This document shows, one piece after another, positions 2,477 to 16,750 of a stretch of 17,219 nucleotides of DNA (the first letter of the stretch is position 1; the number at the start of each line of letters is the position of its first letter). This stretch comes from an uncultured Nitrososphaerota archaeon (GTDB lineage: Archaea; Thermoproteota; Nitrososphaeria; Conexivisphaerales; DTJL01). Below the pieces are notes generated by a model. That model did no database searches. It saw only the letters and a list, made by a program, of their open reading frames with translations, and was not told where the DNA came from. The stretch covers positions 1 through 17,219 of the forward strand of contig CAWJIE010000009.1 in assembly GCA_963842885.1 (NCBI GenBank), in the 5' to 3' direction. Made by a program: the position numbers and the translations under genes.

Positions 2477-3046
2477 ATGCTCGCCAGCCCGATGCTCTTG
2501 GAGGGTTCCGAATGGGTCATCGTGGTCGTAATCATCGGAGCGCTGCTGATCTTCGGCCCGGATAAGATTCCGCAGATCGCCAAGCAGGTGGGAAGGGCGA
2601 GGGCGGAGTTTGACAAGGCGTCCAATGAAGCCAAGACGATGATGGACACGGCCATGAAGAGCATCGACGAGGAAGCATCGGAGGCTACGAAATCGCTGAG
2701 CGCAACCGCCAACGACATGAAGGCTTCCTTGGAAGGCACGGCCAACGAGATGAAGTCCTCCCTTGACTCAGTGGTCAGCTCCGTTCGGGCTCCGGCGTCT
2801 GCTCTAACCGCCAGCGCTGCCCCAGGCATCCCTCCCAGCTCACCTGCCCCGACCCCAGCCGTGGTCGAGCCTCAGGCTGCTGCGCCCGCATCTCAGGCTG
2901 CTGCGCCCGCACCGACGGCGAGCGAAGTGGACACTGACGCACTCCTGAAATTGGCTCACCGCATGGGCATTGTGACCGACGGAAAGACGAGGGACGAGAT
3001 ATCGGAGGAGATATTCTCGAAGTCCGGCTCACAGGCCAAGACCTAG
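2477..3046 (+). CDS. tatA: Twin-arginine translocase TatA/TatB family subunit, long form
   Basis: EWVIVVVIIGALLIFGPDKIPQIAKQVGRARAEFDKA gives the TM, FG hinge and amphipathic helix. The C-terminus LAHRMGIVTDGKTRDEISEEI is archaeal-type. Adjacent to tatC. Confidence 0.9.
   Translation: MLASPMLLEGSEWVIVVVIIGALLIFGPDKIPQIAKQVGRARAEFDKASNEAKTMMDTAMKSIDEEASEATKSLSATANDMKASLEGTANEMKSSLDSVVSSVRAPASALTASAAPGIPPSSPAPTPAVVEPQAAAPASQAAAPAPTASEVDTDALLKLAHRMGIVTDGKTRDEISEEIFSKSGSQAKT
2705..2770 (+). repeat. 33-bp (11-aa) degenerate tandem repeat in tatA
   Basis: ACCGCCAACGACATGAAGGCTTCCTTGGAAGGC / ACGGCCAACGAGATGAAGTCCTCCCTTGACTCA encode TANDMKASLEG / TANEMKSSLDS. Confidence 0.8.
2871..2911 (+). repeat. 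20-bp exact direct repeat (period 21) in the tatA Pro/Ala linker
   Basis: CTCAGGCTGCTGCGCCCGCA occurs at 2871-2890 and 2892-2911 (PQAAAPA/SQAAAPA). Confidence 0.9.
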
Positions 3047-3162
3047 TGCGCCTGTCACTTTTCGCGACCTCTTCGTCTCTTTCTGAATGAGTTAATTCTT
3101 ATAATAGTATGACTGGGCTACAGTCGTCGGAGAGCTGGGTCTCCTCAGGTGGTGTGTGACAG

Positions 3163-4069
3163 GTGAGCAATCCAAATGATAGGTCGATGCCCATATGGGA
3201 CCACATCACCGAGCTAATCAAACGGATGAAGGTGGTCATAATAACCTTCATCGTGTCCACCCTCGTCGCGTTGGCGGTGCCCATCGACCTTAGCTTCTTG
3301 AAGAACACCGCGTTCTACAGGACGCCCGCAACCTGGCTCCTCGGCCTGATTAACGAGTACGAAAGGCCCAAGCAACTCATACTCATCAGCGGAGAGATAA
3401 CGGCGCCCCTCGAGCTCTGGGTCATCGCCGCCTGCCTGATGGGCGCCATCGTCACCGCGCCCGTCTTCGCCTTCGAGCTGTACCGCTTCATCGATCCCGC
3501 GCTCTACCCGGACGAAAGGAAGGCGGTGTACCCGGTCATCACAGCCTTCACCGTGCTCTTCCTGACAGGCCTCCTCTTCGGTTGGTTCGTCTTGATCCCG
3601 TTCATGTTCTGGGGCCTGCTACCGTTCTTCGGGTTCGTGGATGCACAGCCGGTCATCTTCGTCATGGACTTCTACACCCTAGTGTTGATCTTCCTGGCGA
3701 ATAACCGGGATCTCGTTCACCCTGCCGGTGTTCTTCGTTCTGCTCGTGAGGTTCCACATACTTCATACTTCGATAATCACCAAGCACAGGAGGTACTACT
3801 ACGCTGCGCTCTACATAGTGGCCGCTTTGATCACGCCTGACGGCGGCGTCTGGGCCGACCTTGCCCTCTTCCTCCCTCTTGCTGCGCTCACCGAGATAGC
3901 GATCCTGGTATCAAAGCGGTACGAGAAGCCCGAGAAGCAGGAGAGGAAAGCCGGTCGAAGCGCCTCCCCCGAGGCCGCTCCGGTCCTGCCCACCAAGTGC
4001 AAGTACTGCGGCCAAGGCCTCGTCAAGGGCAATCCGTTCTGCCCCAACTGCAAACGCAGCCAGGTATAG
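3163..4069 (+). CDS. tatC: Twin-arginine translocase TatC with C-terminal zinc ribbon; one +1 frameshift at ~3700
   Basis: Motifs MPIWDHITELIKR, FIDPALYPDE and AALITPDG. Removing one A at 3700/3701 joins the two track ORFs (FLA-ITGISFTLPVFF) into 301 aa ending CKYC...FCPNC. Confidence 0.88.
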
Positions 4070-4075
4070 CAGACT

Positions 4076-5097
4076 TCATCCGAAGGGCTTCAGGATCTCC
4101 AGGGTCTCCCTAAGCCCAGGGTCCACCCCGGTGAGCTCCTGGTGCCTCTTGAAGAACAGGAAGATCCTGATCATGGGGCCCAGCGTGTTGAAGATGGTCG
4201 CCGTGTGGTGCATCTTCTTCAGGATGAAATCGTATGCGTCGTCATAGACGCTGAACTTCTTCTTGACCTCCCTTTCGTAGTGCCTCAAGGTCATCCAGGT
4301 TGTCCGCCAGTAGCTTGGCGCAGATCATGCTCGGGAGTATCCCTTCCCCAAGGATGGGGAAGACGGTGCCGACGGCCTCCCCCACCCCCACGACGTTCCC
4401 CCTCCTGAAGGGAGTCACGGCCTTCGGAGAGGCCACCCGGATGGGCTTGCCCATCTTCCTCAAGACGTGGTCGGCGGGGTAGTGGTCGAAGAACGTCTTC
4501 ACCCTAGCTTCATGGTGTTTGACCGCGTCGCCGGCGCCGACGTAGGCTTCTCCGTCCCTGAGCGGGAAGTACCACAGGTAGCCCGTGTAGCTGTCGAACG
4601 GCTCCACGTAGAAGTCGTCGAAGGGCATCTTGTCGTATTTCACTTGGTACTGGACGCAGGGGATCACCATGTCCTTCCCCGTGTCGGCCGGCCCGACGAT
4701 CCTCCTGTAGGGGCCGGTCGCGTCGATGACCATGTCATACTTGGCCTCCAGGTCGCCCGGCCTGACGTAGGTCCCAAAGTGGACGTTGGCGCCTTCGGCC
4801 ATGTCCAGGATGAGCCTGGGCTTGTCGAAGGTGGAGAGTTGGGGCGCCCTCATCAGCGTGATTTTGTCGTGGGCGTAGACGTAGATCTTCTTCCCCCTGT
4901 GGAAGAGGTAGTCGTCGTAGTTGAGCCCGATGTCCTTCAAGGAGGGGCTTGATCCCGGCGTATCCCGTCCCCCAGGCGCATGTGCTGGAGAACCGCTCCC
5001 GCGTCTGACCCTCGAAGACCTCCACTTCATGCTTCTGGCGAAGGAGGGCCGCGAGGTAGCTGCCGGAGGGACCCAGACCCGCTATGGCGATCCTCAA
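4076..5097 (-). CDS. Geranylgeranyl-reductase-like NAD(P)/FAD-dependent oxidoreductase; +1 frameshifts at ~4941 and ~4283
   Basis: Rossmann start MRIAIAGLGPSGSYLA, then CAWG, IDATG, GYLWYFP and VGEAVGTVFPILGEGI. Removing one base at each site joins three track ORFs into 339 aa. Confidence 0.82.
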
Positions 5098-5139
5098 TCA
5101 GGCCACTCCTCCCTTCGATGTGAGCTTCGAAAAGGGGCC

Positions 5140-5190
5140 CATTATATATATTATCATATCGCGCGTTCTATCCCTGATAAATTTAAATGG
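5140..5190. promoter_or_regulatory. Divergent archaeal promoter region (reductase / nuo operon)
   Basis: AT-rich island in GC-rich DNA, with ATTATATATATTA at ~5141-5153 and AAATTTAAAT at ~5178-5188. Confidence 0.6.
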
Positions 5191-5236
5191 CCGTCCAGAT
5201 GACCACACGTGAGAGCTGCGGGGGTCATCTGCGAGC

Positions 5237-5605
5237 TTGTTTGGCGCTGACCAAGGCCTTTACTGGTTCATCGTCTTCGCAGTGCTCGCCCTCGTATCGG
5301 GGCTCCTGTTCCTGATCATACCGATGGTCTTCGCGCCGCGCAACCGGAGCGCCCTGAAGGAGGAGAGCTTCGAAGCCGGCCAGCTCCCTCCGGGGGCCAA
5401 GAGGATCAGGTTCGCCCTCCAGTACTACGCCTACCTGCTTCTCTTCTTGGTCTTCGACGTCACCATCATGATTCTCTTCGTGTGGGGCTACGCCTTCTTC
5501 TCGGCGGGCCGGTATGGCTTCGTCTACCCCCTGATCCTGCTCCTCGTCCTCATCCCCCCTCTGATTTACACGGTGAAGCTCTCCAAGGCAGTGGACATGT
5601 GGTAG
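5237..5605 (+). CDS. nuoA: Complex I-like subunit A
   Basis: Three TMs, FEAG loop, QYYAYLLLFLVFDV motif and C-terminal W. TTG start. Confidence 0.92.
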   Translation: MFGADQGLYWFIVFAVLALVSGLLFLIIPMVFAPRNRSALKEESFEAGQLPPGAKRIRFALQYYAYLLLFLVFDVTIMILFVWGYAFFSAGRYGFVYPLILLLVLIPPLIYTVKLSKAVDMW

Positions 5606-5607
5606 AG

Positions 5608-6732
5608 ATGGCTGAGACACCGCGTGGAGACTTCCTGAAGACCTTCCTCGTCTTCGCCTCCATCGCTATGGTCGCAGCCGTCGCCGTGCTCCTCTCGTTG
5701 ATATACCAGCCCCTCCTCTCGATCCTTTCCTACATCTTCAAGAGCCCTTCCAGGCTGCTCGTGGATCCGCTGTTCAAGACCCTGGTCTTCCCGGGGCTCG
5801 TCTATGCCGGCCTTGTGGCGTACGTCGCCATCTGGGGCGAAAGGAAGTTCGCGGCCAAGGTGCAGAACAGGGTGGGACCGCTCTACGCCGGCGCCCTCCC
5901 CGAAGGGATACTGCAGAACATCGCTGACCTGCTCAAGATCCTCTTCAAGGAGATCATCATACCGCGGGAGACGGACAAGCCCATCTTCATCATGGCCCCC
6001 GTGGCGGCTTTCGTCATAGGGGCCCTCCCGGTCGTCCTGGTGCCCTATTCGCCCACCTACGTCATCTTCGACTTCCCCCTCAGCCTCCTCCTGTTCTTCG
6101 TCTTCACGGCCTTCTACCCCCTGGTCCTCCTCCTGGCTGGCTGGAGCAGCAACAACAAGTTCTCCTTCATCGGGAGCCTTCGCGCCCTCTACCAGCAGGC
6201 GTCCTACGAGGTGCCGCTCTTCCTGGCCGCCCTGGCGCCGGTCATGCTGGCTGGCTCCTTCCGTCTGATCGACATCGGCAACGCCCAGAGCGGGTTCTGG
6301 TACGTGCTCGTCGCCCCCATCTCCGCGATCGTCTTCTTCACCGCTCTGCTGGCCGAGCTGGAGAAGTTCCCCTTCGATATACCCGAGGCCGACAGCGAGC
6401 TAGTGGCGGGCTGGCTGACGGAGTACTCGGGTGTCCCCTACCTCCTCTACCAGTTCGCAGCCTACATCAAGATGGTGGCCTACGCGGGGCTCTTCGTCGT
6501 CCTGTTCCTCGGCGGCTGGAGCGGCTTCTCCTTCCTCCCCGGCGAGTGGTGGATGGTGATCAAGGTGGCCCTGGTCGTGCTCGTAATCATCTCCACCCGG
6601 GCCTTCTTCCCTAGGATAAGGATCGACCAGCTTCTCAGCGCCGGCTGGACCAAGCTCATCCCGCTGGCCGTGCTCAACATAGTGCTCCTGGTCCTGCTTC
6701 AGTACGTCGGCCTCCTGGCGTTTCTCAGGTGA
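5608..6732 (+). CDS. nuoH: Complex I-like subunit H
   Basis: ERKFAAKVQNRVGP, GILQNIADLLKILFKE, GWSSNNKFS, SYEVP, PFDIPEADSELVAG and PRIRIDQL. ATG lies 2 nt after the nuoA stop. Extra N-terminal hydrophobic segment. Confidence 0.95.
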   Translation: MAETPRGDFLKTFLVFASIAMVAAVAVLLSLIYQPLLSILSYIFKSPSRLLVDPLFKTLVFPGLVYAGLVAYVAIWGERKFAAKVQNRVGPLYAGALPEGILQNIADLLKILFKEIIIPRETDKPIFIMAPVAAFVIGALPVVLVPYSPTYVIFDFPLSLLLFFVFTAFYPLVLLLAGWSSNNKFSFIGSLRALYQQASYEVPLFLAALAPVMLAGSFRLIDIGNAQSGFWYVLVAPISAIVFFTALLAELEKFPFDIPEADSELVAGWLTEYSGVPYLLYQFAAYIKMVAYAGLFVVLFLGGWSGFSFLPGEWWMVIKVALVVLVIISTRAFFPRIRIDQLLSAGWTKLIPLAVLNIVLLVLLQYVGLLAFLR

Positions 6733-6738
6733 CATGAA

Positions 6739-7430
6739 TTGGACTACCTCCTCCCCCTGATAATCCTCGCATTCACCTCTCTGATGGCGCTGCTGGCGCT
6801 GGAGAGCAAGTCGCTGGTGTACGGCGCCATCTCCCTCGGCGGGTTCTTCCTCGGCCTTTCGATCTTCTTCTTCTATCTGAACCTCTTCTATCTCGCCATC
6901 TTCCAGCTCCTGGTCTACGTGGGGGCCGTCTCCGTGCTGATCCTCTTCGCCGTCATGGTCATCGGCGAGCCTTCGAAGGCCCCCTCCCGGAGGGCGATTC
7001 AGCGGGTTCGGCTTCCTCGGAGGCCTGCTCCTGGCCCTGGCCGCGGACTTCATGGGGCTCGTCCTGATCTTCTCCTTCCTCAACGTCACGCTAGACCCCA
7101 TATTCCAGTCCCTCCTGTACGTCGGCCCCATCGTCGTGTTCTTCGCGTTCGTCATCCTGTTCCTCGGTGAGCCGAAGGAGAGGAGCCGTTACAGGTTCAA
7201 GGCCTTCGGGGTCCTCGGGGCGTCTCTGGTCTTCGCGAGCTTCATCGGCGTGCTTTCGTACCTGGGCTCCCTTCCCACGTTCTCCGGAAACGTGGCCTTC
7301 AACATCGTGGACCTCGCCGATAGCCTCCTAAACGACTACGGTCTCCTGATCGTGGTCCTGGGGCTTCTCCTGGCCGCCGCCGCCTTCGGGGCCGTCGCCC
7401 TGGCAAAGAAGGAGGCTGAGGAACGAGTGA
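6739..7430 (+). CDS. nuoJ: Complex I-like subunit J with internal duplication; +1 frameshift at ~6980-6994; as sequenced, reads in frame into nuoK
   Basis: AIFQLLVYVGAVSVLILFAVM (TM3) and C-terminal LLNDYGLLIVVLGLLLAAAAFGAVALAKKE. The end at TGA 7428-7430 is inferred by assuming a second extra base near 7420. Confidence 0.82.
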
Positions 7431-7735
7431 ACGAGCTGCAGTTCTTCATCGCCGCTTCGGCGCTCTTCTTCGCCATTGGCGTGTACGGCCTCCTTTCCAA
7501 GAAGAGCGCCATCAGGATCCTCTTCTCCATCGAGATAATCATCAACGCCGCCAGCCTGAACATCGCCGCCTTCGCGCGGTTCTCCCCCTACAACCTTGGA
7601 TCGGCGCAGTCCATCACCATCTTCATCATAGCCCTCGCCGCCGCCGAAGCAGCCGCAGGCCTGGCCCTGATCATAGAGGCCTTCCGAATCAGGGGCAAGG
7701 TCGACGTCAACGAAATGGACGAGCTCAAGGGATAG
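7427..7735 (+). CDS. nuoK: Complex I-like subunit K
   Basis: LFFAIGVYGLL, LFSIEIIINAASLN and AAAEAAAGLA, with both conserved Glu. GTG start is preceded by GGAGG. Confidence 0.9.
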   Translation: MNELQFFIAASALFFAIGVYGLLSKKSAIRILFSIEIIINAASLNIAAFARFSPYNLGSAQSITIFIIALAAAEAAAGLALIIEAFRIRGKVDVNEMDELKG

Positions 7736-7745
7736 GTGGAGAGAG

Positions 7746-9240
7746 ATGGACTTCTGGCTCCTGTTGGCAGTATTCCTCCCGGTGCTCGGCGCGGTGGCCG
7801 CCTCCTTATCGAAGGAGAGGAGGGAGGCCGTCTCCATTTCGGCGATCACCACCGGCATCTCGCTGCTGTTCCTCTGCGTCGCGGCATGGTCGGGCGGCGT
7901 GTTCTCCTCAGGAGGCTCGACCTATTCGGAGCTCTACAACTGGGCGCCACTCGGCAAGGCAGGGTTCAGGCTCGACGGGCTGAGCCTCCCCTTCGCCCTC
8001 ATAATCGGGGTGCTGTCGTTCGTCATAACCTTCTATTCTTCGCCCTACATGGCCCACAAGTTCCATGAGGACGGCTCCGAGAAGTGGGGCCTCTTCTTCA
8101 CGCTCTACCAGCTCTACTTCTCCGGGATGTTGGGCGCCGTCCTGGCCACCAACCTGATCGAGTTCTACATCTTCTTCGAGCTCATGCTGATCCCCTCGTA
8201 CTTCCTCATCGCCGAATTCGGGTACGGAGAGAAGGGAAGGATCTCCTTCATGTACTTCATCTGGACCCACTTCGGCGCCCTCGTCATGCTGGCCGGGCTC
8301 ATCTACCTCGGGTTTTCAGCTGGCTCCTTCGACCTGTCGGTCCTGTCGACCCAGGCGGGCCTTCTGCCGGTGGCGGTCCAGCTATTCGTGTCGGTTGCCC
8401 TCTCCGTCGGCCTCTCCGTCAAGATGGCCGCCTTCGGCCTCCACGTCTGGCTGCCGCACGCGCACGCCGAGGCACCCACGCCCATCAGTGCCCTGCTCTC
8501 CCCCGCGATGATAGGAATCGGGGGATACGCCCTCCTCCGGTTCATGGTCACTCTGCTTCCTTCCGGCTACTCCATCGTCTCACCCTACCTGCTGTTCTGG
8601 GGCTTCATCACAATCCTCTACGGCGGGCTCATGGCCCTCGCGCAGGACGACATCAAGCGGCTCCTGGCCTACTCCAGCATCAGCCAGATGGGCTACATCT
8701 TGGTGGGCATAGCGTCCGCCAACGTGCTGGGCTACGGAGGCGCCACACTGCAGTACGTCGCCCATGGCCTGGGGAAGGGGACGCTCTTCATGGTGGCCGG
8801 CGTGCTCATCATGCAGACGGGCACGCGTTCGATAGGCAAGCTGGGCGGGCTCGCAAAGAGGATGCCGTTGACGGCCACCCTAGCTCTCATCGGCTTCCTC
8901 ACCATAATGGGCGTCCCACCGACCGCCGGGTTCATCTCCGAGTTCTTCGTGTTTCAGGGAGCCTTCTCTACGGCCAGCCCTCGGCGGCTCCACCCTCAGG
9001 TTCGCCATAACCTTCCTCGCGATGCTCGCCTCCCTCCTCACCTTCGGCTACGCCCTCTGGACCATGAAGCGCATCTTCTTCGGGAAGCTCCCCGAATCCC
9101 TCTCTGGCGCCAGGGACCCTTCGATGATGGCTCTGGCTCCGATGTTCGTCCTCTGCATTCTCTCCATCATCATAGGGATCTACCCCTTCCTCCTCGACCG
9201 GGCCGTGGAGTTCCTTCGCATCGCCCTGGGAGGTGCCTAG
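7746..9240 (+). CDS. nuoM: Complex I-like antiporter subunit M, copy 1; +1 frameshift at ~8975
   Basis: DGLS, FYIFFELMLIP, KMAAFGLHVWLPHAHAEAPT, DIKRLLAYSSISQMG and GFISEF. Removing one base near 8974-8976 links to TLRFAITFLAMLASLLTFGYALW, giving 497 aa. Confidence 0.88.
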
Positions 9241-11316
9241 ATGGTGGACAGCGGCGTCTTCGCATGGCTCGTATGGATACTCCCCATGGCTGGTGCCCTC
9301 CTCACCCCGCTCTTCGCCAGGCTGGGGCACAAGGTCAGGGACTACGCCGCGGTCTCCTTCGCCCTGCTCTCCGCCCTGGCCTCGACGTCTCTCCTCCCGG
9401 TGCTGCTCGGCGGCCACATAGTCGACAGCCAGGTCCCCTGGTTCCTCGGCCTCGACGCCGGAGTCCTGGCCGACCCCCTCAGCGTCCTCATCGGGACCGT
9501 GGTCTCCTGGGTCTGCTTCTTGATTATGGTCTACAGCCTGGACTACATGCACGGTGACGAAGGCCTCACGCGCTATTGGTTCTTCATGAACCTTTTCATC
9601 GGGAGCATGCAGCTCATCATCTTCTCCGACAACCTCCTCCAGCTGTTCTTCGGTTGGGAGGGCGTGGGTCTCTGCAGCTACGCACTCATCGGATTCTGGT
9701 ACACCGACGAGAAGTCCCGTTGGGTGGGCACCGAAGGCGACACCGCCCTGGGTCAGCCTCAGGCCTACTCCCCCACTCACGCCGGGATGAAGGCATTCAT
9801 CACCACGAGGGTCGGCGACATCTTCACCTTGGTGGGCATCTTCATCATCTACGCCTACGCGGGCACCTTCCAGTACCTCCGCCTTTCGGCTGACACTTCG
9901 TGGGCGTCGGCCATGCACGCGTCAGGTCTGCTTCTCCCCACCATGCTCCTCCTCCTCGGGGGCGCCATCGGGAAGTCCGCGCAGTTCCCACTCCATGAAT
10001 GGCTCCCCGACGCCATGGCTGGCCCCACATCGGTCTCCGCATTGATCCATGCCGCCACGATGGTCAAGGCCGGCGTCTACTTCGTCGCGAGGCTGGCGCC
10101 CATCTTCTTCATCCTCCCCTTCGCTGAGAAGGGTGACTTCTTCACGGCCGTCGCCCTCATCGGAGGGTTCACTGCGTTCCTGGCGGCCTCCCAGGCGCTG
10201 GTCAACAAGGAACTGAAGAAGGTGCTGGCGTACAGCACGGTCTCCCAGATCGGCTACATGATGCTGGCGATTGGAGTCGCCGGCCTGTCGACCAGCTTTC
10301 TCGAAGGCTACGTCGCCTCCATCTTTCAACTCTTGTCGCACATGCTCTTCAAGGCTGGTCTCTTCATGGCTGCCGGCGTCCTCATCCACGTCACGGAGAC
10401 AAAGTACATGAACGAGATGGGTGGGCTCAAGACCAATGTTCGGCGCACCTTTTTCGCGTTCATCATACTGGCCCTTGCCCTCGCGGGCATGCCGCCGCTG
10501 AGCGGTTTCTGGAGCAAGGACTCCATCTTCGCAGCCGCCCTAGGGGCCCCGGCCAGCCTGGTCACGGAATCCGTCTACCTTGCCGCCAGCGTCACCGCTC
10601 TGATCACCGCCTTCTATAGCATCAGGATGGTGGGTATGATCTTCTTTGGCCCCGGCAGGGAGGAAGGTGAGCACCTCCATGACTCCCGCCTCCTGGAGTT
10701 CTCCACCTATGGGATACTAGCAGCTGCTACGCTCGCCATCGGCTTCGTCGGCCCCCTGTTCGAGAACTCCCTGTTCTCGGCGCTCAGCTCCTACGTCGGC
10801 GCCTTCGGGTTGGTCGAGAGCGGAGCCTTCGTGTTCAACCTCTCGGCCGTGGCGACCTCCCTCACGGTCTTCCTCGTCGGCGCCTTCCTTGCCTATCCGT
10901 TCTATGTTTCACGGAGGATGAGCTCAGACAGGCTCATCTCGGGGAGCCCCTTCCTCCAGGGCATCTACAACTTCCTTTGGCACAGATGGTACCTCGACGC
11001 CATCTACTACAAACTCTTCGTCAACCCCGTCATGAGCGCCTCGCTCTGGGGCTACCGGGTCATCGAGCAGGGCTTCTTCGACAGGATCAACGGAGGCGTG
11101 GCCGTCGGCGCCCGAAGCGTATCTACCGCCGGCGACTGGTTCGACCGACACATCATCGACGGGTTCGTCAACGGAGTGGGACGCGTCGCGGGCGGCTTCT
11201 CCTCCCGCTTACGGAAGCTCCAGACGGGGGTCGCCGAGTCCTACCTCTTCTTCATCCTGATAGGTCTGATCCTGTTGCTGCTCCTGCTGACCTTCTACAC
11301 TGGAGGCGTGCCATAG
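9241..11316 (+). CDS. nuoL: Complex I-like antiporter subunit L with extended lateral helix
   Basis: GWEGVGLCSYALIGFW, GKSAQFPLHEWLPDAMAGPTSVSALIHAATMV, HMLFKA, GFWSKD and LRKLQTG. Confidence 0.96.
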   Translation: MVDSGVFAWLVWILPMAGALLTPLFARLGHKVRDYAAVSFALLSALASTSLLPVLLGGHIVDSQVPWFLGLDAGVLADPLSVLIGTVVSWVCFLIMVYSLDYMHGDEGLTRYWFFMNLFIGSMQLIIFSDNLLQLFFGWEGVGLCSYALIGFWYTDEKSRWVGTEGDTALGQPQAYSPTHAGMKAFITTRVGDIFTLVGIFIIYAYAGTFQYLRLSADTSWASAMHASGLLLPTMLLLLGGAIGKSAQFPLHEWLPDAMAGPTSVSALIHAATMVKAGVYFVARLAPIFFILPFAEKGDFFTAVALIGGFTAFLAASQALVNKELKKVLAYSTVSQIGYMMLAIGVAGLSTSFLEGYVASIFQLLSHMLFKAGLFMAAGVLIHVTETKYMNEMGGLKTNVRRTFFAFIILALALAGMPPLSGFWSKDSIFAAALGAPASLVTESVYLAASVTALITAFYSIRMVGMIFFGPGREEGEHLHDSRLLEFSTYGILAAATLAIGFVGPLFENSLFSALSSYVGAFGLVESGAFVFNLSAVATSLTVFLVGAFLAYPFYVSRRMSSDRLISGSPFLQGIYNFLWHRWYLDAIYYKLFVNPVMSASLWGYRVIEQGFFDRINGGVAVGARSVSTAGDWFDRHIIDGFVNGVGRVAGGFSSRLRKLQTGVAESYLFFILIGLILLLLLLTFYTGGVP

Positions 11317-11317
11317 G

Positions 11318-12796
11318 TTGGCGATCCCCATCCTCAGCCTGATGATCTTCCTGCCGGGAGTCGGAGGGCTGATCGTCTACCTTGCGGGACGAATGGTCAC
11401 CAGGGCTGCGAAGTATCTCGCCCTCTCCATCACCCTCGTCGAAGGGGTGCTGGCCTTCGTCGCCTACTTCACCGTCTTCACTGCAGAAGGACCGTTCGGC
11501 ATCTCATCCTTCGTCCTCCAGGAGCAGTACCCGTGGATAGGCTCTCTCGTCACATATCATGTGGGCATAGACGGGCTAAGCGGGCCCCTCATTCTCATGT
11601 CCGTCCTCCTCACCGCCTTGGCCACGGCAGGCTCCTTCTTCGAGATCAAGGAGAAAGAGTCCTCCTACTACGCCCTGATGATGTTCTTCCTCGCCTCCGC
11701 GGTGGGGGTCTTCGCCTCCTTGAACCTAATACTGTTCTACTTCTTCTGGGAGGCCTCGTTCATCCCCATGTTCTTCTTCATCGGCATATGGGGAGGACCC
11801 AACAGGAAGTACGCCTCCGTCAAGTTCCTCCTCTTCACATACTCGGGCAGCGTCGCGATGCTGCTGGGCTTCCTCCTCCTCTACTTCATGACCCCCGGAC
11901 AGTCCTTCGACCTCGTGTCCCTCCTTAATTCGAGCATCCCCGGCTGGCTCCAGGCCGGCGCCTCCGCCCTCACCTTCCTGGGCTTCGGGGTCAAGCTCCC
12001 GGTCTTCCCCCTGCACACCTGGCTCCCTGACGCCCACGTTGAGGCTCCCTCCCCCATCAGCGTGCTCCTGGCGGGCATCCTTCTCAAGATGGGAGGGTAT
12101 GGCTTCCTCAGGTTCAACCTCGAGCTCTTCAGATCGGCCGCCTTCCAGTACGCCTGGGTCTACATCGCCATCGGTCTGATCACCATGTTCTATGGTGCCA
12201 TCGTTGCCCTGATGCAGAAGGACTTCAAGCGGATGGTGGCACTGACCTCCATCAACCACATGGGCTTCGTCCTCCTCGGGGCGTTCGCCGGCCTCGCGGC
12301 TGGCTCCGTCAGCTTCGGCATATCTGGGGCGGTCTTCCAGATGTTCAACCATGCCTTCGCCATCGGCGCCCTCTTCATGCTGGCCGGCTTCATCGAGCAT
12401 GGAACAGGGACCAGGGACCTCACGGTCGTTCGCGGCCTGCGCAGCGTGACCCCCAGGATGGGTGTCATGCTGATACTGGCGGCCCTGGCGGGGATGGGTG
12501 CCCCCTTGTTCAGCAGCTTCCTCAGCGAATTCATGGTCCTCCTGAGCGGCATCACCTACAGCCCCTATCTCTGGGTCGCGGTCCTCGTCCCCGGCATAAC
12601 TGCTGCGTACCTCCTTTGGATGCTCTGGCGGGCGGTCCTCAGCGGACCGACGCCGGGTTCCGAGTATCACGACATCTCCAGGAAGGAGGTACTCTACCTC
12701 GCCCTCTTCCTGATCCCCCTGGTCGTGCTTCTACTCGTCCCGGGCCTCCTTCTCTCCCCCATATCACAGTTCACGAAGGCGGTGTTTGGAGGCTAG
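11318..12796 (+). CDS. nuoM: Complex I-like antiporter subunit M, copy 2
   Basis: GIDGLS, FYFFWE, KLPVFPLHTWLPDAHVEAP, LLAGILLKMGGYG, DFKRMVALTSINHMG and FLSEF. Confidence 0.94.
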   Translation: MAIPILSLMIFLPGVGGLIVYLAGRMVTRAAKYLALSITLVEGVLAFVAYFTVFTAEGPFGISSFVLQEQYPWIGSLVTYHVGIDGLSGPLILMSVLLTALATAGSFFEIKEKESSYYALMMFFLASAVGVFASLNLILFYFFWEASFIPMFFFIGIWGGPNRKYASVKFLLFTYSGSVAMLLGFLLLYFMTPGQSFDLVSLLNSSIPGWLQAGASALTFLGFGVKLPVFPLHTWLPDAHVEAPSPISVLLAGILLKMGGYGFLRFNLELFRSAAFQYAWVYIAIGLITMFYGAIVALMQKDFKRMVALTSINHMGFVLLGAFAGLAAGSVSFGISGAVFQMFNHAFAIGALFMLAGFIEHGTGTRDLTVVRGLRSVTPRMGVMLILAALAGMGAPLFSSFLSEFMVLLSGITYSPYLWVAVLVPGITAAYLLWMLWRAVLSGPTPGSEYHDISRKEVLYLALFLIPLVVLLLVPGLLLSPISQFTKAVFGG

Positions 12797-12802
12797 ATTG
12801 GA

Positions 12803-14242
12803 TTGCTGATCACCATAGCCACGCTCGCAATACCCGCCCTCCTGATACCTGTGTTGGCAGCGCTGGGCATGAAGCAGAAGCGGTTCCCCGAGATCGTCAC
12901 CGTGGTGGCCCTATTCCTCGCCATGCTCCAGCTCCCATTCGTGCTTCTATCTAGCTCCTTCCCCAACACTCAATCCTGGATCTGGTCCTACCCGCACAAC
13001 CTCCTAAGCTTCGACGGCATTTCGTTCGTCTTCAGCGTCACGGTGATCCTCGTCGCCATGATGGTGGCGATCGCCTCCTCCACCATGCTGGATGGAGACG
13101 AAAACAAGCCAGTCTACTACTCCCTCCTCCTCTTCGCCACGATAGGAATGATCCTTGTCTCTTCGACGGCGGACCTGATCTTCCTCCTGATCTCATGGGA
13201 GCTCATGACCGTCCCCAGCTTCCTGCTCGTTGCGCTGAAGAAGCGGGACCCCAAGGCCAACGAAGCTGCCATCAAGTTCTTCCTGGCGGCGGCCCTCTCC
13301 TCCGCCCTGATCCTCTACGGGATCTCCCTCTTCTACGGAGTGACCGGGTCGACCTCGCTCTACGCGCTCCAGAGCAGCCTGGCCAGCCTCCCGCCGTCGG
13401 GCTCCTCCATCATACTCCTGGCGACGGCCTTCCTTCTGGGAGGCTTCGCCGTGAAAATGGCCCTGGTGCCCTTCCACTTCTGGCTTCCGGACACTCTCGA
13501 GGGAGCGTATCCCCCAGTCGCCGCCTTGCTGGCAGCCGGCTCCAAGAAGGCGGGCTTCGCGGCCGCGCTCAGGGTCGTCGTCCTGCTCGTCCTGGTGAGC
13601 CGCTTCGCCTCGGTCTCCCCCTCATGGCAGCTGGCACTTGGCATCATGGCCGCCATCACCATGACCTGGGGGAACGTCGCCGCCCTGACGCAGAAGAGCC
13701 TCCCACGGCTCCTCGCCTACTCCAGCATAGCCCAGGCCGGTTACATGATGATCGGTCTGGCCGTGCAGGGGACCAGCGGCGCTCTGTTCGGCCTGATCGG
13801 TCTCCTCCTCGCCGTCCTGTTTCACGCCGTGATGAAGGGTAGCGCCTTCATCTCGCTGAGAAACATAGGCACTTCGATGGACGACGTGGTGGGCCTCTAC
13901 AAGAAGGCGCCCCTGATGGCCCTCGGCTTCGCCGTTTCTCTCTTCGCGTTGGCCGGACTGCCTCCTCTCAACGGCTTCTGGAGCAAGCTGTTCCTGTTCA
14001 TGGGCGCCGTCCAGGGAGGCATGGCGTGGTTGGCCGCAATCGCCCTGGTCAACAGCGCCGTCGCCCTGGGATACTACAGCTACGTCGCCAAGAAGATGTT
14101 CTTCGACGACCCGCTGACTCCGGGCCCCGCCGTCCAGCAGCCGGACGTCCTCGCCGTCACCCTCTTCGCCCTGGTGTTCATAATAGCGACCGGCCTCTAT
14201 CCTGAACCTTTGATTCGGCTGATAACCCTGGTGGCCCCGTAG
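12803..14242 (+). CDS. nuoN: Complex I-like antiporter subunit N
   Basis: WELMTVPS, EAAIKFF, KMALVPFHFWLPD, RLLAYSSIAQAGY and LAGLPPLNGFWSK. Confidence 0.95.
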   Translation: MLITIATLAIPALLIPVLAALGMKQKRFPEIVTVVALFLAMLQLPFVLLSSSFPNTQSWIWSYPHNLLSFDGISFVFSVTVILVAMMVAIASSTMLDGDENKPVYYSLLLFATIGMILVSSTADLIFLLISWELMTVPSFLLVALKKRDPKANEAAIKFFLAAALSSALILYGISLFYGVTGSTSLYALQSSLASLPPSGSSIILLATAFLLGGFAVKMALVPFHFWLPDTLEGAYPPVAALLAAGSKKAGFAAALRVVVLLVLVSRFASVSPSWQLALGIMAAITMTWGNVAALTQKSLPRLLAYSSIAQAGYMMIGLAVQGTSGALFGLIGLLLAVLFHAVMKGSAFISLRNIGTSMDDVVGLYKKAPLMALGFAVSLFALAGLPPLNGFWSKLFLFMGAVQGGMAWLAAIALVNSAVALGYYSYVAKKMFFDDPLTPGPAVQQPDVLAVTLFALVFIIATGLYPEPLIRLITLVAP

Positions 14243-14245
14243 CTC

Positions 14246-15082
14246 TCAGAAGTACTCGACGACCAGCTTCTCCAGCTTCTCTAGGCTCGCAGAAGCCGGC
14301 AGCCCGCGCAGTATCGCCAAGGCGGAGCTTCCATACTCGTCGGCGGCTGCCTCCACCTTCTTGATCCTGTCCTCACCCGTCACTTCCAGGGAGTTGATGA
14401 GCTCCCCTGGCTTCTCGATGTCAGCCAAGTCATCCCTCAGCTGATAGGCCATCCCCAGCTTCATTCCGAACTCGCTCACCGTAGGAGCCAGCTGTTTCCT
14501 GGCAGAAAGCGCCGCGCCGACCGTAGCGGACGCCCTGAAGAGGGAGGCGGTCTTGAGCTCAAGGACCTCGATGTAGTTCTGCCATGACACGCCTGAAGGG
14601 TTCCGGGTCAACCTGCCCTCCATCTCCTCCCCGGCCGACATCTCTACGGCCGCCCTAGACAACTCGCGGCCGACAGCCCTCTCGTCATAGAGGGAGGCCA
14701 CTTCGAGGATGACGCCAAGGACGAAGTCGGCGGACAGAAGGGCCGAGTCGACGCCGAACATCTGATAGTATGGCGGCTTCTCGCGGCGCACTGACTCCTT
14801 GTCGATGATGTCGTCGTGAATCAGCGAAACCGTATGGAGAAGCTCGATGGCTGAAGTCGCAAGGATCGGGTCCTCGGCACCCGCCCCGAGCGCTTCGTTC
14901 ACCAGGAGGACGACCAGCGGTCTCAACCTCTTCCCTCCCTGCAACGAATATGCCATCGGATCGTGGAGAGGATGGGTCGAGTGCTTCATCATGAGCTGTT
15001 TCAAGCCTGCGTCGATCCTTTCGATGTAGGCTTTATGCTCCTTCAGAAATCGCACTTCCTGACTTATCGCTTCTTCAACCAA
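14246..15082 (-). CDS. Trans-polyprenyl diphosphate synthase
   Basis: GGKRLRP, FARM SLIHDDIID..RR, KTASLF and SARM AYQLRDDLAD. A TATA-like TTATAAATA lies on the minus strand at ~15140-15148. Confidence 0.93.
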   Translation of the reverse strand: MVEEAISQEVRFLKEHKAYIERIDAGLKQLMMKHSTHPLHDPMAYSLQGGKRLRPLVVLLVNEALGAGAEDPILATSAIELLHTVSLIHDDIIDKESVRREKPPYYQMFGVDSALLSADFVLGVILEVASLYDERAVGRELSRAAVEMSAGEEMEGRLTRNPSGVSWQNYIEVLELKTASLFRASATVGAALSARKQLAPTVSEFGMKLGMAYQLRDDLADIEKPGELINSLEVTGEDRIKKVEAAADEYGSSALAILRGLPASASLEKLEKLVVEYF

Positions 15083-16740: not shown

Positions 16741-16750
16741 GCTTATAAGC
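16741..16750 (+). promoter_or_regulatory. Palindromic TATA-like box upstream of the integrase
   Basis: GCTTATAAGC is a perfect 10-bp palindrome 21-30 nt before ATG 16771. Confidence 0.55.

Follow-up and report, generated by a model that had tools for sequence, protein, structure and literature searches.

The NuoJ subunit of complex I encoded in this stretch of DNA contains a 67-residue internal tandem duplication that includes the third transmembrane helix (TM3). Taken together, the data are best read as a duplication of 67 codons of which the first copy retains the working TM3 and the second forms an accessory hairpin, on a contig that carries single-base insertion errors; we give this combined reading a probability of about three in four. 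The window, by which we mean the whole stretch of DNA that was analysed, is an entire contig of 17,219 nt and belongs to a genome of 2.03 Mb in 11 contigs (87% complete by marker genes) from an archaeon of soil and peat. The nuoJ gene is placed between nuoH and nuoK within a nuo operon; the genes of this operon in the window and all features of nuoJ described below are on the plus strand.

Around nuoJ, the operon comprises nuoA (5237–5605; Pfam Oxidored_q4, 66.1 bits), nuoH (5482–6732 as the listed ORF; Pfam NADHdh, 318.7 bits over residues 107–403), the true start of which probably lies downstream of the listed position 5482, nuoK with a GTG start (7427–7735; Pfam Oxidored_q2, 77.1 bits), an extra nuoM-like gene, hereafter nuoM' (7746–9237; Pfam Proton_antipo_M), in which a surplus base at 8976 breaks the frame, nuoL (9241–11316, 691 aa), nuoM (11318–12796) and nuoN (12803–14242). 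Among solved structures, the top match of the intact orthologue of nuoM' is NuoM (192.8 bits), those of the orthologue of nuoL, a gene also recognised by Pfam, are NdhF/NuoL (277.5 bits), and those of nuoM and nuoN are NuoM (254.8 bits) and NdhB/NuoN (222 bits), respectively. The four antiporter-like genes (7746–14242) correspond to the '2M' form of the complex. Upstream of the operon are found tatA and tatC (2477–4066), the latter frameshifted at ~3700, and downstream a polyprenyl synthetase gene on the minus strand (14246–15082). An ORF running off the end of the contig (16717–17217) is weakly similar to the N-terminal SAM-like domain of phage integrases, at 19.3 bits and hence below the Pfam cut-off of 22.3 bits.

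In the window the reading frame of nuoJ is broken at 6978 and the two halves of the gene are held by two ORFs (6739–7170 in frame 1 and 7052–7735 in frame 2). The 5' part (6739–6978, frame 1) encodes residues 1–80, comprising TM1, TM2, the canonical TM3 and the start of the following loop; it covers positions 2–67 of the Pfam Oxidored_q3 profile and is collinear with intact relatives. The 3' part (6980–7426, frame 2) encodes residues 81–229, comprising the remainder of the loop, a hybrid helix, a second TM3-like helix (TM3'), a second loop, TM4 and TM5; it covers Oxidored_q3 positions 15–146, and the genome search matched it to positions 80–229 of the profile of duplicated proteins. An earlier note on this DNA had proposed a diverged internal duplication of ~67 residues in NuoJ, including a second TM3-like helix with a Y-x-G-P motif, and had looked to a double Oxidored_q3 match and a significant self-alignment as its tests. 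The duplication is real, as confirmed by self-alignment, profiles, Pfam and intact relatives, and it does include that helix. Each of the two nuoJ pieces matches Oxidored_q3 (PF00499) above the cut-off of 33.2 bits: the 5' piece scores 54.5 bits and the 3' piece 44.1 bits, and 58.1 and 46.1 bits, respectively, are reached when the genome is searched. The Smith-Waterman score of the self-alignment is 129, compared with 40 ± 7.1 for shuffled sequences, none of 2000 shuffles reaching 129; BLASTP between the two uninterrupted pieces of the window aligns 49 residues of which 19 are identical (39%, E 5e-10), and hhalign of copy-1 and copy-2 profiles built from 11 orthologues gives a probability of 98.1% (E 1.2e-13, 64 columns, 38% identity). 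At the DNA level, a period of ~200 nt was not found in the window by TRF or by a repeat finder, and the sole trace is a 23-nt match of 74% at a spacing of 198 nt. The repeat is thus visible as protein only, and no longer as DNA.

The true period of the repeat is obtained from intact relatives. The frameshift was read through, with CGGA taken as a single arginine codon, and the product was searched against 5.8 billion proteins; a reading with AGGG as arginine was also shifted near the end of nuoK, and both readings put the shift ~10 nt too far downstream with respect to the relatives' contigs. This search recovered 11 homologues of 223–233 aa (61–94% identity), which are the intact NuoJ proteins of ~230 aa with both copies that the earlier note had suggested looking for. 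In all 11 the two copies are in one frame and collinear, with gapless junctions, and NuoJ ends in KKEAEE[RQ] or KKE.EE followed by a stop, none being fused to NuoK. The uninterrupted frame is likewise present in three genomes of the same genus (G011, G012 and G014), and the same operon with an intact nuoJ occurs in the two closest MAG relatives, named at NCBI 'Conexivisphaerales archaeon' and 'uncultured Nitrososphaerales archaeon'. In the relatives 67 residues separate the two tyrosines of the repeated motifs, and likewise the two GEP motifs, so that the true period is 201 nt (67 codons) and the duplication is in frame. The motif positions given previously for the window are exact (TAC GTG GGG at 6916 and TAC GTC GGC at 7118; GGC GAG CCT at 6964 and GGT GAG CCG at 7166, each pair 202 nt apart), the period of 202 nt corresponding to 201 nt plus one surplus base. 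As the earlier note had stated, removal of the repeat leaves a NuoJ of normal size, ~162 aa; the nearest unduplicated relatives have 164 aa.

According to the self-alignment, copy 1 comprises residues 28–95 (6820–7024, including the surplus base) and copy 2 residues 96–162 (7025–7225). The canonical TM3 with its YVGA motif (residues 51–76; 6889–6966) aligns to TM3 of solved NdhG/NuoJ chains, and TM3' with its Y-x-G-P motif occupies residues 118–143 (7091–7168), Y127 and P130 being invariant. Alignment with the unduplicated protein P0017 (164 aa, 56% identical) leaves a single clean gap of ~66 residues, located between the TM3-4 loop and TM4. The sequences that follow the two copies, RFSGFGFLG after copy 1 and RFKAFGVLG after copy 2, are similar to each other, as expected if the breakpoint lies in TM4. 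The repeated unit therefore begins halfway along TM2, comprises TM3 and the TM3-4 loop and ends within the first residues of TM4. It follows from these boundaries that the first of the new helices is a hybrid, in which the start of TM4 is joined to the end of TM2. A hydropathy profile (15-residue window) of the 229-aa protein displays six clear hydrophobic blocks; the block at residues 28–76 is read as TM2 plus TM3 from the alignment to solved chains, which gives seven predicted helices, that is, about two more than the usual five, in line with what the earlier note had anticipated. The family norm of five helices and ~160–185 aa is exceeded, and the duplicated NuoJ represents a variant architecture. 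The loops rich in Lys and Arg (EPSKPPPRGRF, EPKGRSRYRFK and the C-terminal KKE) all face the same side, with the acidic loops opposite, from which the topology (N-out, C-in) is predicted to be preserved. Of the two loops, the second, just before TM4, shows the higher conservation (69% vs. 47%), and it has probably kept the contacts of the ancestral TM3-4 loop.

We further analyzed how widely this architecture occurs. A profile of the 11 intact proteins searched against 1.84 billion representatives matched 1712 clusters with E ≤ 1e-3, a single one of which spans positions 1–229; the next match is the 164-aa protein P0017. Among the 150 matches listed, two matches to the repeat unit were found in 11 of the 12 duplicated proteins (the read-through product of the window counted) and in none of the 11 other NuoJ-like proteins of at least 205 aa. 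In 36 genomes of the order and 401 genomes sampled from the class, full-length matches are restricted to one genus (g1), where they comprise the window's genome, G011, G012 and G014; a further genome of this genus, G013, which is 59% complete, gives no match. Each g1 genome has one nuoJ locus. All four genomes of the sister genera (G015–G018) encode the short NuoJ, and a metagenome scan gave a full-length match in 2 of 80 retained loci. Among the genomes and proteins searched, the duplication is thus confined to the window's own genus. The earlier note had called it old because the copies are well diverged; this is to be qualified by the occurrence in a single genus among the genomes searched and by the asymmetry of the strong divergence, which arises because copy 2 evolved fast. 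In a quick NuoJ tree the duplicated proteins do not form one clade and two changes are needed, on weakly supported branches, and a single clade of duplicated proteins is not rejected by the AU test (p 0.17). As the earlier note had supposed, the titles and abstracts found in the literature hold nothing on a duplicated NuoJ; judged by these, it appears to be a previously undescribed form of a known subunit.

Conservation distinguishes the two copies clearly. The score against the unduplicated P0017 is 209 for copy 1 and 101 for copy 2, and the solved NdhG and NuoJ chains 7eu3_G, 6hum_G and 8e9g_J align to TM2-TM3 of copy 1. In the 11 orthologues the mean pairwise identity is 93% for TM3 and 60% for TM3'; the stretch F55–V74 of copy 1 is continuously invariant in all 11, whereas the invariant positions of copy 2 are mainly Y127, P130, L140 and F141, together with Y151 and R152. 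Substitution rates were compared for six pairs among four distinct genes; dN/dS for the helices is 0.03–0.11 (TM3) and 0.25–0.84 (TM3'), and for the whole copies 0.13–0.26 (copy 1) and 0.20–0.37 (copy 2), values that are rough as dS is near saturation (about 1). The C-terminal third of NuoJ, with dN/dS of 0.11–0.40, resembles copy 2. We conclude from this conservation that copy 1 holds the canonical gating TM3 and is probably the working copy. Copy 2, that is, the hairpin, appears from the codon comparison to be translated and under relaxed yet moderate purifying selection, looser than that on copy 1. The invariance in copy 2 of Y127, which corresponds to the tyrosine of TM3, exceeds the needs of a purely passive spacer and weighs against the accessory reading favoured below.

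Compared with the canonical NuoJ/ND6/NdhG family (PF00499), the protein shares the position between nuoH and nuoK, the Pfam match, the alignment of TM2-TM3 of copy 1 and the conserved C-terminal TM5, but differs in having 229 aa and seven predicted helices instead of ~160–185 aa and five, and in carrying at the TM3-4 loop an additional TM2b-TM3-loop unit that has diverged in sequence. NuoJ of the sister genera, which belong to the same family (P0017; G015–G018, 164 aa), is 56% identical overall and is encoded in the same A-H-J-K-M'-L-M-N gene order but is devoid of profile positions 99–150, which form the hairpin. The duplication had been suggested to co-occur with a remodelled membrane arm and with loss of nuoBCDI, and neither part of this holds. 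The same operon is combined with a 164-aa NuoJ in the sister genera, so that the duplication and the extra pump subunit do not go together; the genome also possesses nuoB, nuoC, nuoD and a ferredoxin-type nuoI-like gene, which are located on its contig 3. Both forms of co-occurrence, with the extra pump subunit and with a loss of these four genes, were accordingly rejected. The other nuo membrane subunits show no internal indel above 5 aa that is specific to the genus. The nuoB/I-like/C/D locus of this genome (G000) lies at about 279.7–286.0 kb of contig 3 (positions 4219–10478 of locus L012, minus strand). There, nuoB carries a LAGLIDADG-domain insert and the nuoI-like gene two Hint/intein-splicing plus LAGLIDADG inserts, so that inteins in these complex I subunits seem likely; nuoD is split over two frames.

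The window shares with the 2M-type complex I the two nuoM-like genes, the 691-aa nuoL and nuoN. A lengthened lateral helix of NuoL is a further reported criterion of the 2M complex I. NuoL measures 690–691 aa vs. 606–656 aa in solved NuoL/NdhF chains, a comparison of whole lengths. The 2M operon is common to the sister genera and to G010, a genome of another family of the taxonomic order; the 2M form predates the NuoJ duplication and has a wider distribution. A 2M complex I has been reported for heterotrophic marine Thaumarchaeota (PMC7300363, citing Chadwick et al. 2018), in a paper whose passage on this form is silent on NuoJ.

Two surplus bases account for the state of nuoJ in the window. 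The earlier note was right that one extra base splits the frame, but this base is one G of the GG at 6978–6979, which shifts nuoJ from frame 1 to frame 2, and not part of the AGGG at 6991–6994. From the relatives' contigs the correct reading around 6978 is ...GEPSKPPPGGRFSGFGF..., slightly different from that given previously. The second surplus base (7425–7426), absent from the earlier account, abolishes the stop of nuoJ and places NuoJ and NuoK in one frame; in the DNA alignment the relatives read GAA CAG TGA in this region (7420–7432), the stop overlapping the GTG of nuoK. The gene call recorded on the contig, P0005, is a 227-aa NuoJ-NuoK chimera. Logan contigs from four peat and soil runs of two studies were compared with the window; being 95–99% alike, they are not from the same strain, and they show near relatives, rather than the window's strain, to be intact. 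The base at 6978 is missing in the three runs that cover it (X1–X3, all peat; X5 gives no cover there), and the base at 7425/7427 is missing in all four. Programmed frameshifting was rejected, there being no shift at that place in the relatives.

In order to assess the contig as a whole, events private to the window with respect to both MAGs were counted in the syntenic region of 2.1–14.2 kb, within genes and restricted to lengths that are not multiples of three. The count is eight single-base insertions (2387, 2419, 3700, 4281, 4938, about 6978, 7425 and 8976) and no deletions, and none of them lies in a homopolymer. By tblastn, tatC, a GGR-like gene and nuoM' show matching frame switches, as do two further genes, one of them near 16745. 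The surplus bases are concentrated at 2.1–9.0 kb, the 5.2 kb that hold nuoL, nuoM and nuoN (9.2–14.2 kb) being free of them, and elsewhere in the genome three large aminoacyl-tRNA synthetase genes are whole, which suggests an uneven error rate. A class-I aminoacyl-tRNA synthetase-like locus on contig 4 (4611–6489) is found in four pieces over two open frames. Damage by insertions only, in highly conserved genes, indicates a technical artefact, and the frameshift that splits nuoJ in the window is most likely a sequencing or assembly error. Single-base insertion errors of the contig are thus the best explanation for both the split nuoJ and its fusion to nuoK.

That the errors of the contig extend to the repeat itself, which would then be an assembly stutter or a chimera, is next to impossible: although other errors are present in the contig, the copies are just 38–39% identical as protein and undetectable as a DNA repeat, and the same architecture recurs in MAGs obtained independently as well as in metagenome contigs of other records. 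The remark in the earlier note that the repeat is no assembly stutter is borne out by the divergence of the copies and by their occurrence in these MAGs. It is less far-fetched, but still improbable, that this strain truly has the frameshift and the fusion of NuoJ to NuoK, in which case nuoJ, tatC, nuoM' and others would be recent pseudogenes or NuoJ would consist of two polypeptides. The frame change is, after all, present in the window itself, the compared contigs differ from it by 1–5% and none is from the same strain, the breaks are clustered rather than evenly spread, and the genome is just 87% complete by marker genes. On the other hand, each of the eight private events in coding sequence is a +1 insertion, and neither deletions nor large indels nor changes that create a stop occur among them; the residues flanking the breaks are still 93–95% identical to the intact relatives, the locus is the sole nuoJ of the genome, and both surplus bases are absent from every near relative compared. 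Insertion errors in the contig remain the preferred reading.

For the protein, the reading that we favour is the following. The gene descends from an in-frame tandem duplication of 67 codons, giving a product of 229 aa with seven predicted helices in the order TM1, TM2, TM3, hybrid helix, TM3', TM4 and TM5. Copy 1 keeps the canonical TM3 and would perform the normal function of NuoJ in the E-channel, and copy 2 would form a down-and-up hairpin that leaves and re-enters the cytoplasmic TM3-4 loop, translated, accessory and kept hydrophobic. Most likely this hairpin would pack against the lipid-exposed face of NuoJ, in the manner of a supernumerary subunit, and leave the E-channel unchanged. It may also be a merely tolerated passenger that serves no function, hydrophobic only to spare membrane insertion and assembly; its narrow distribution in a single genus, the fast and asymmetric divergence of copy 2 and the lack of an accompanying change in the other nuo membrane subunits would suit this view, which we nevertheless hold to be unlikely, since the hairpin is neither lost nor decayed in any of the 11 orthologues, which reach down to 61% identity, the dN/dS of copy 2 resembles that of the C-terminal third (0.20–0.37 and 0.11–0.40), and several invariant positions occur besides the hydrophobic ones (Y127, P130, Y151 and R152). 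At the other extreme, TM3' might be a working second gating helix that provides a new proton path or a changed coupling in the four-pump (2M) complex I. Mammalian ND6 is relevant here: in the accounts given in PMC7846746 and PMC8357420, its TMH3 forms a π-bulge and the matrix-side half of this helix rotates in the active/deactive change, while the TMH3-4 loop arches over TMH2 and responds to the same change. The location of the insert in the loop that responds in ND6 (in the account of PMC7846746), the invariance of Y127 and P130 in all 11 orthologues and the purifying selection on copy 2 speak for a second gate. It is nonetheless very improbable, in view of the identity of TM3' (60%, vs. 93% for TM3), of its dN/dS of up to 0.84 (vs. 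at most 0.11), of the variable Gln and Gly of the motif, of the lack of a conserved charged residue within the two new helices and of the occurrence of the same 2M operon in sister genera with a 164-aa NuoJ. An accessory hairpin beside a working copy-1 TM3 is therefore retained as the preferred reading.

In practical terms, single-base insertions in a highly contiguous MAG have produced here a falsely split gene and a false NuoJ-NuoK fusion. As regards gene evolution, the duplicated nuoJ is a clean case of a partial-gene tandem duplication that makes a hybrid transmembrane helix and preserves the topology. Movement between states has been seen in few parts of complex I, and TM3 of NuoJ/ND6 and the TM3-4 loop belong to these, as described for the mammalian enzyme in PMC7846746 and PMC8357420. 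A two-helix hairpin inserted exactly at this loop and kept under selection implies that the loop tolerates a large insertion, and the duplicated NuoJ is a natural variant for structural work. Should TM3' lie beside the canonical TM3 and, instead of being passive, change the gate that links the quinone site to the pump subunits, for which we see very little likelihood, the enzyme would be a naturally occurring complex I whose E-channel is modified, and it would allow the part that rotation of TM3 and the TM3-4 loop of ND6/NuoJ play in coupling to be tested.
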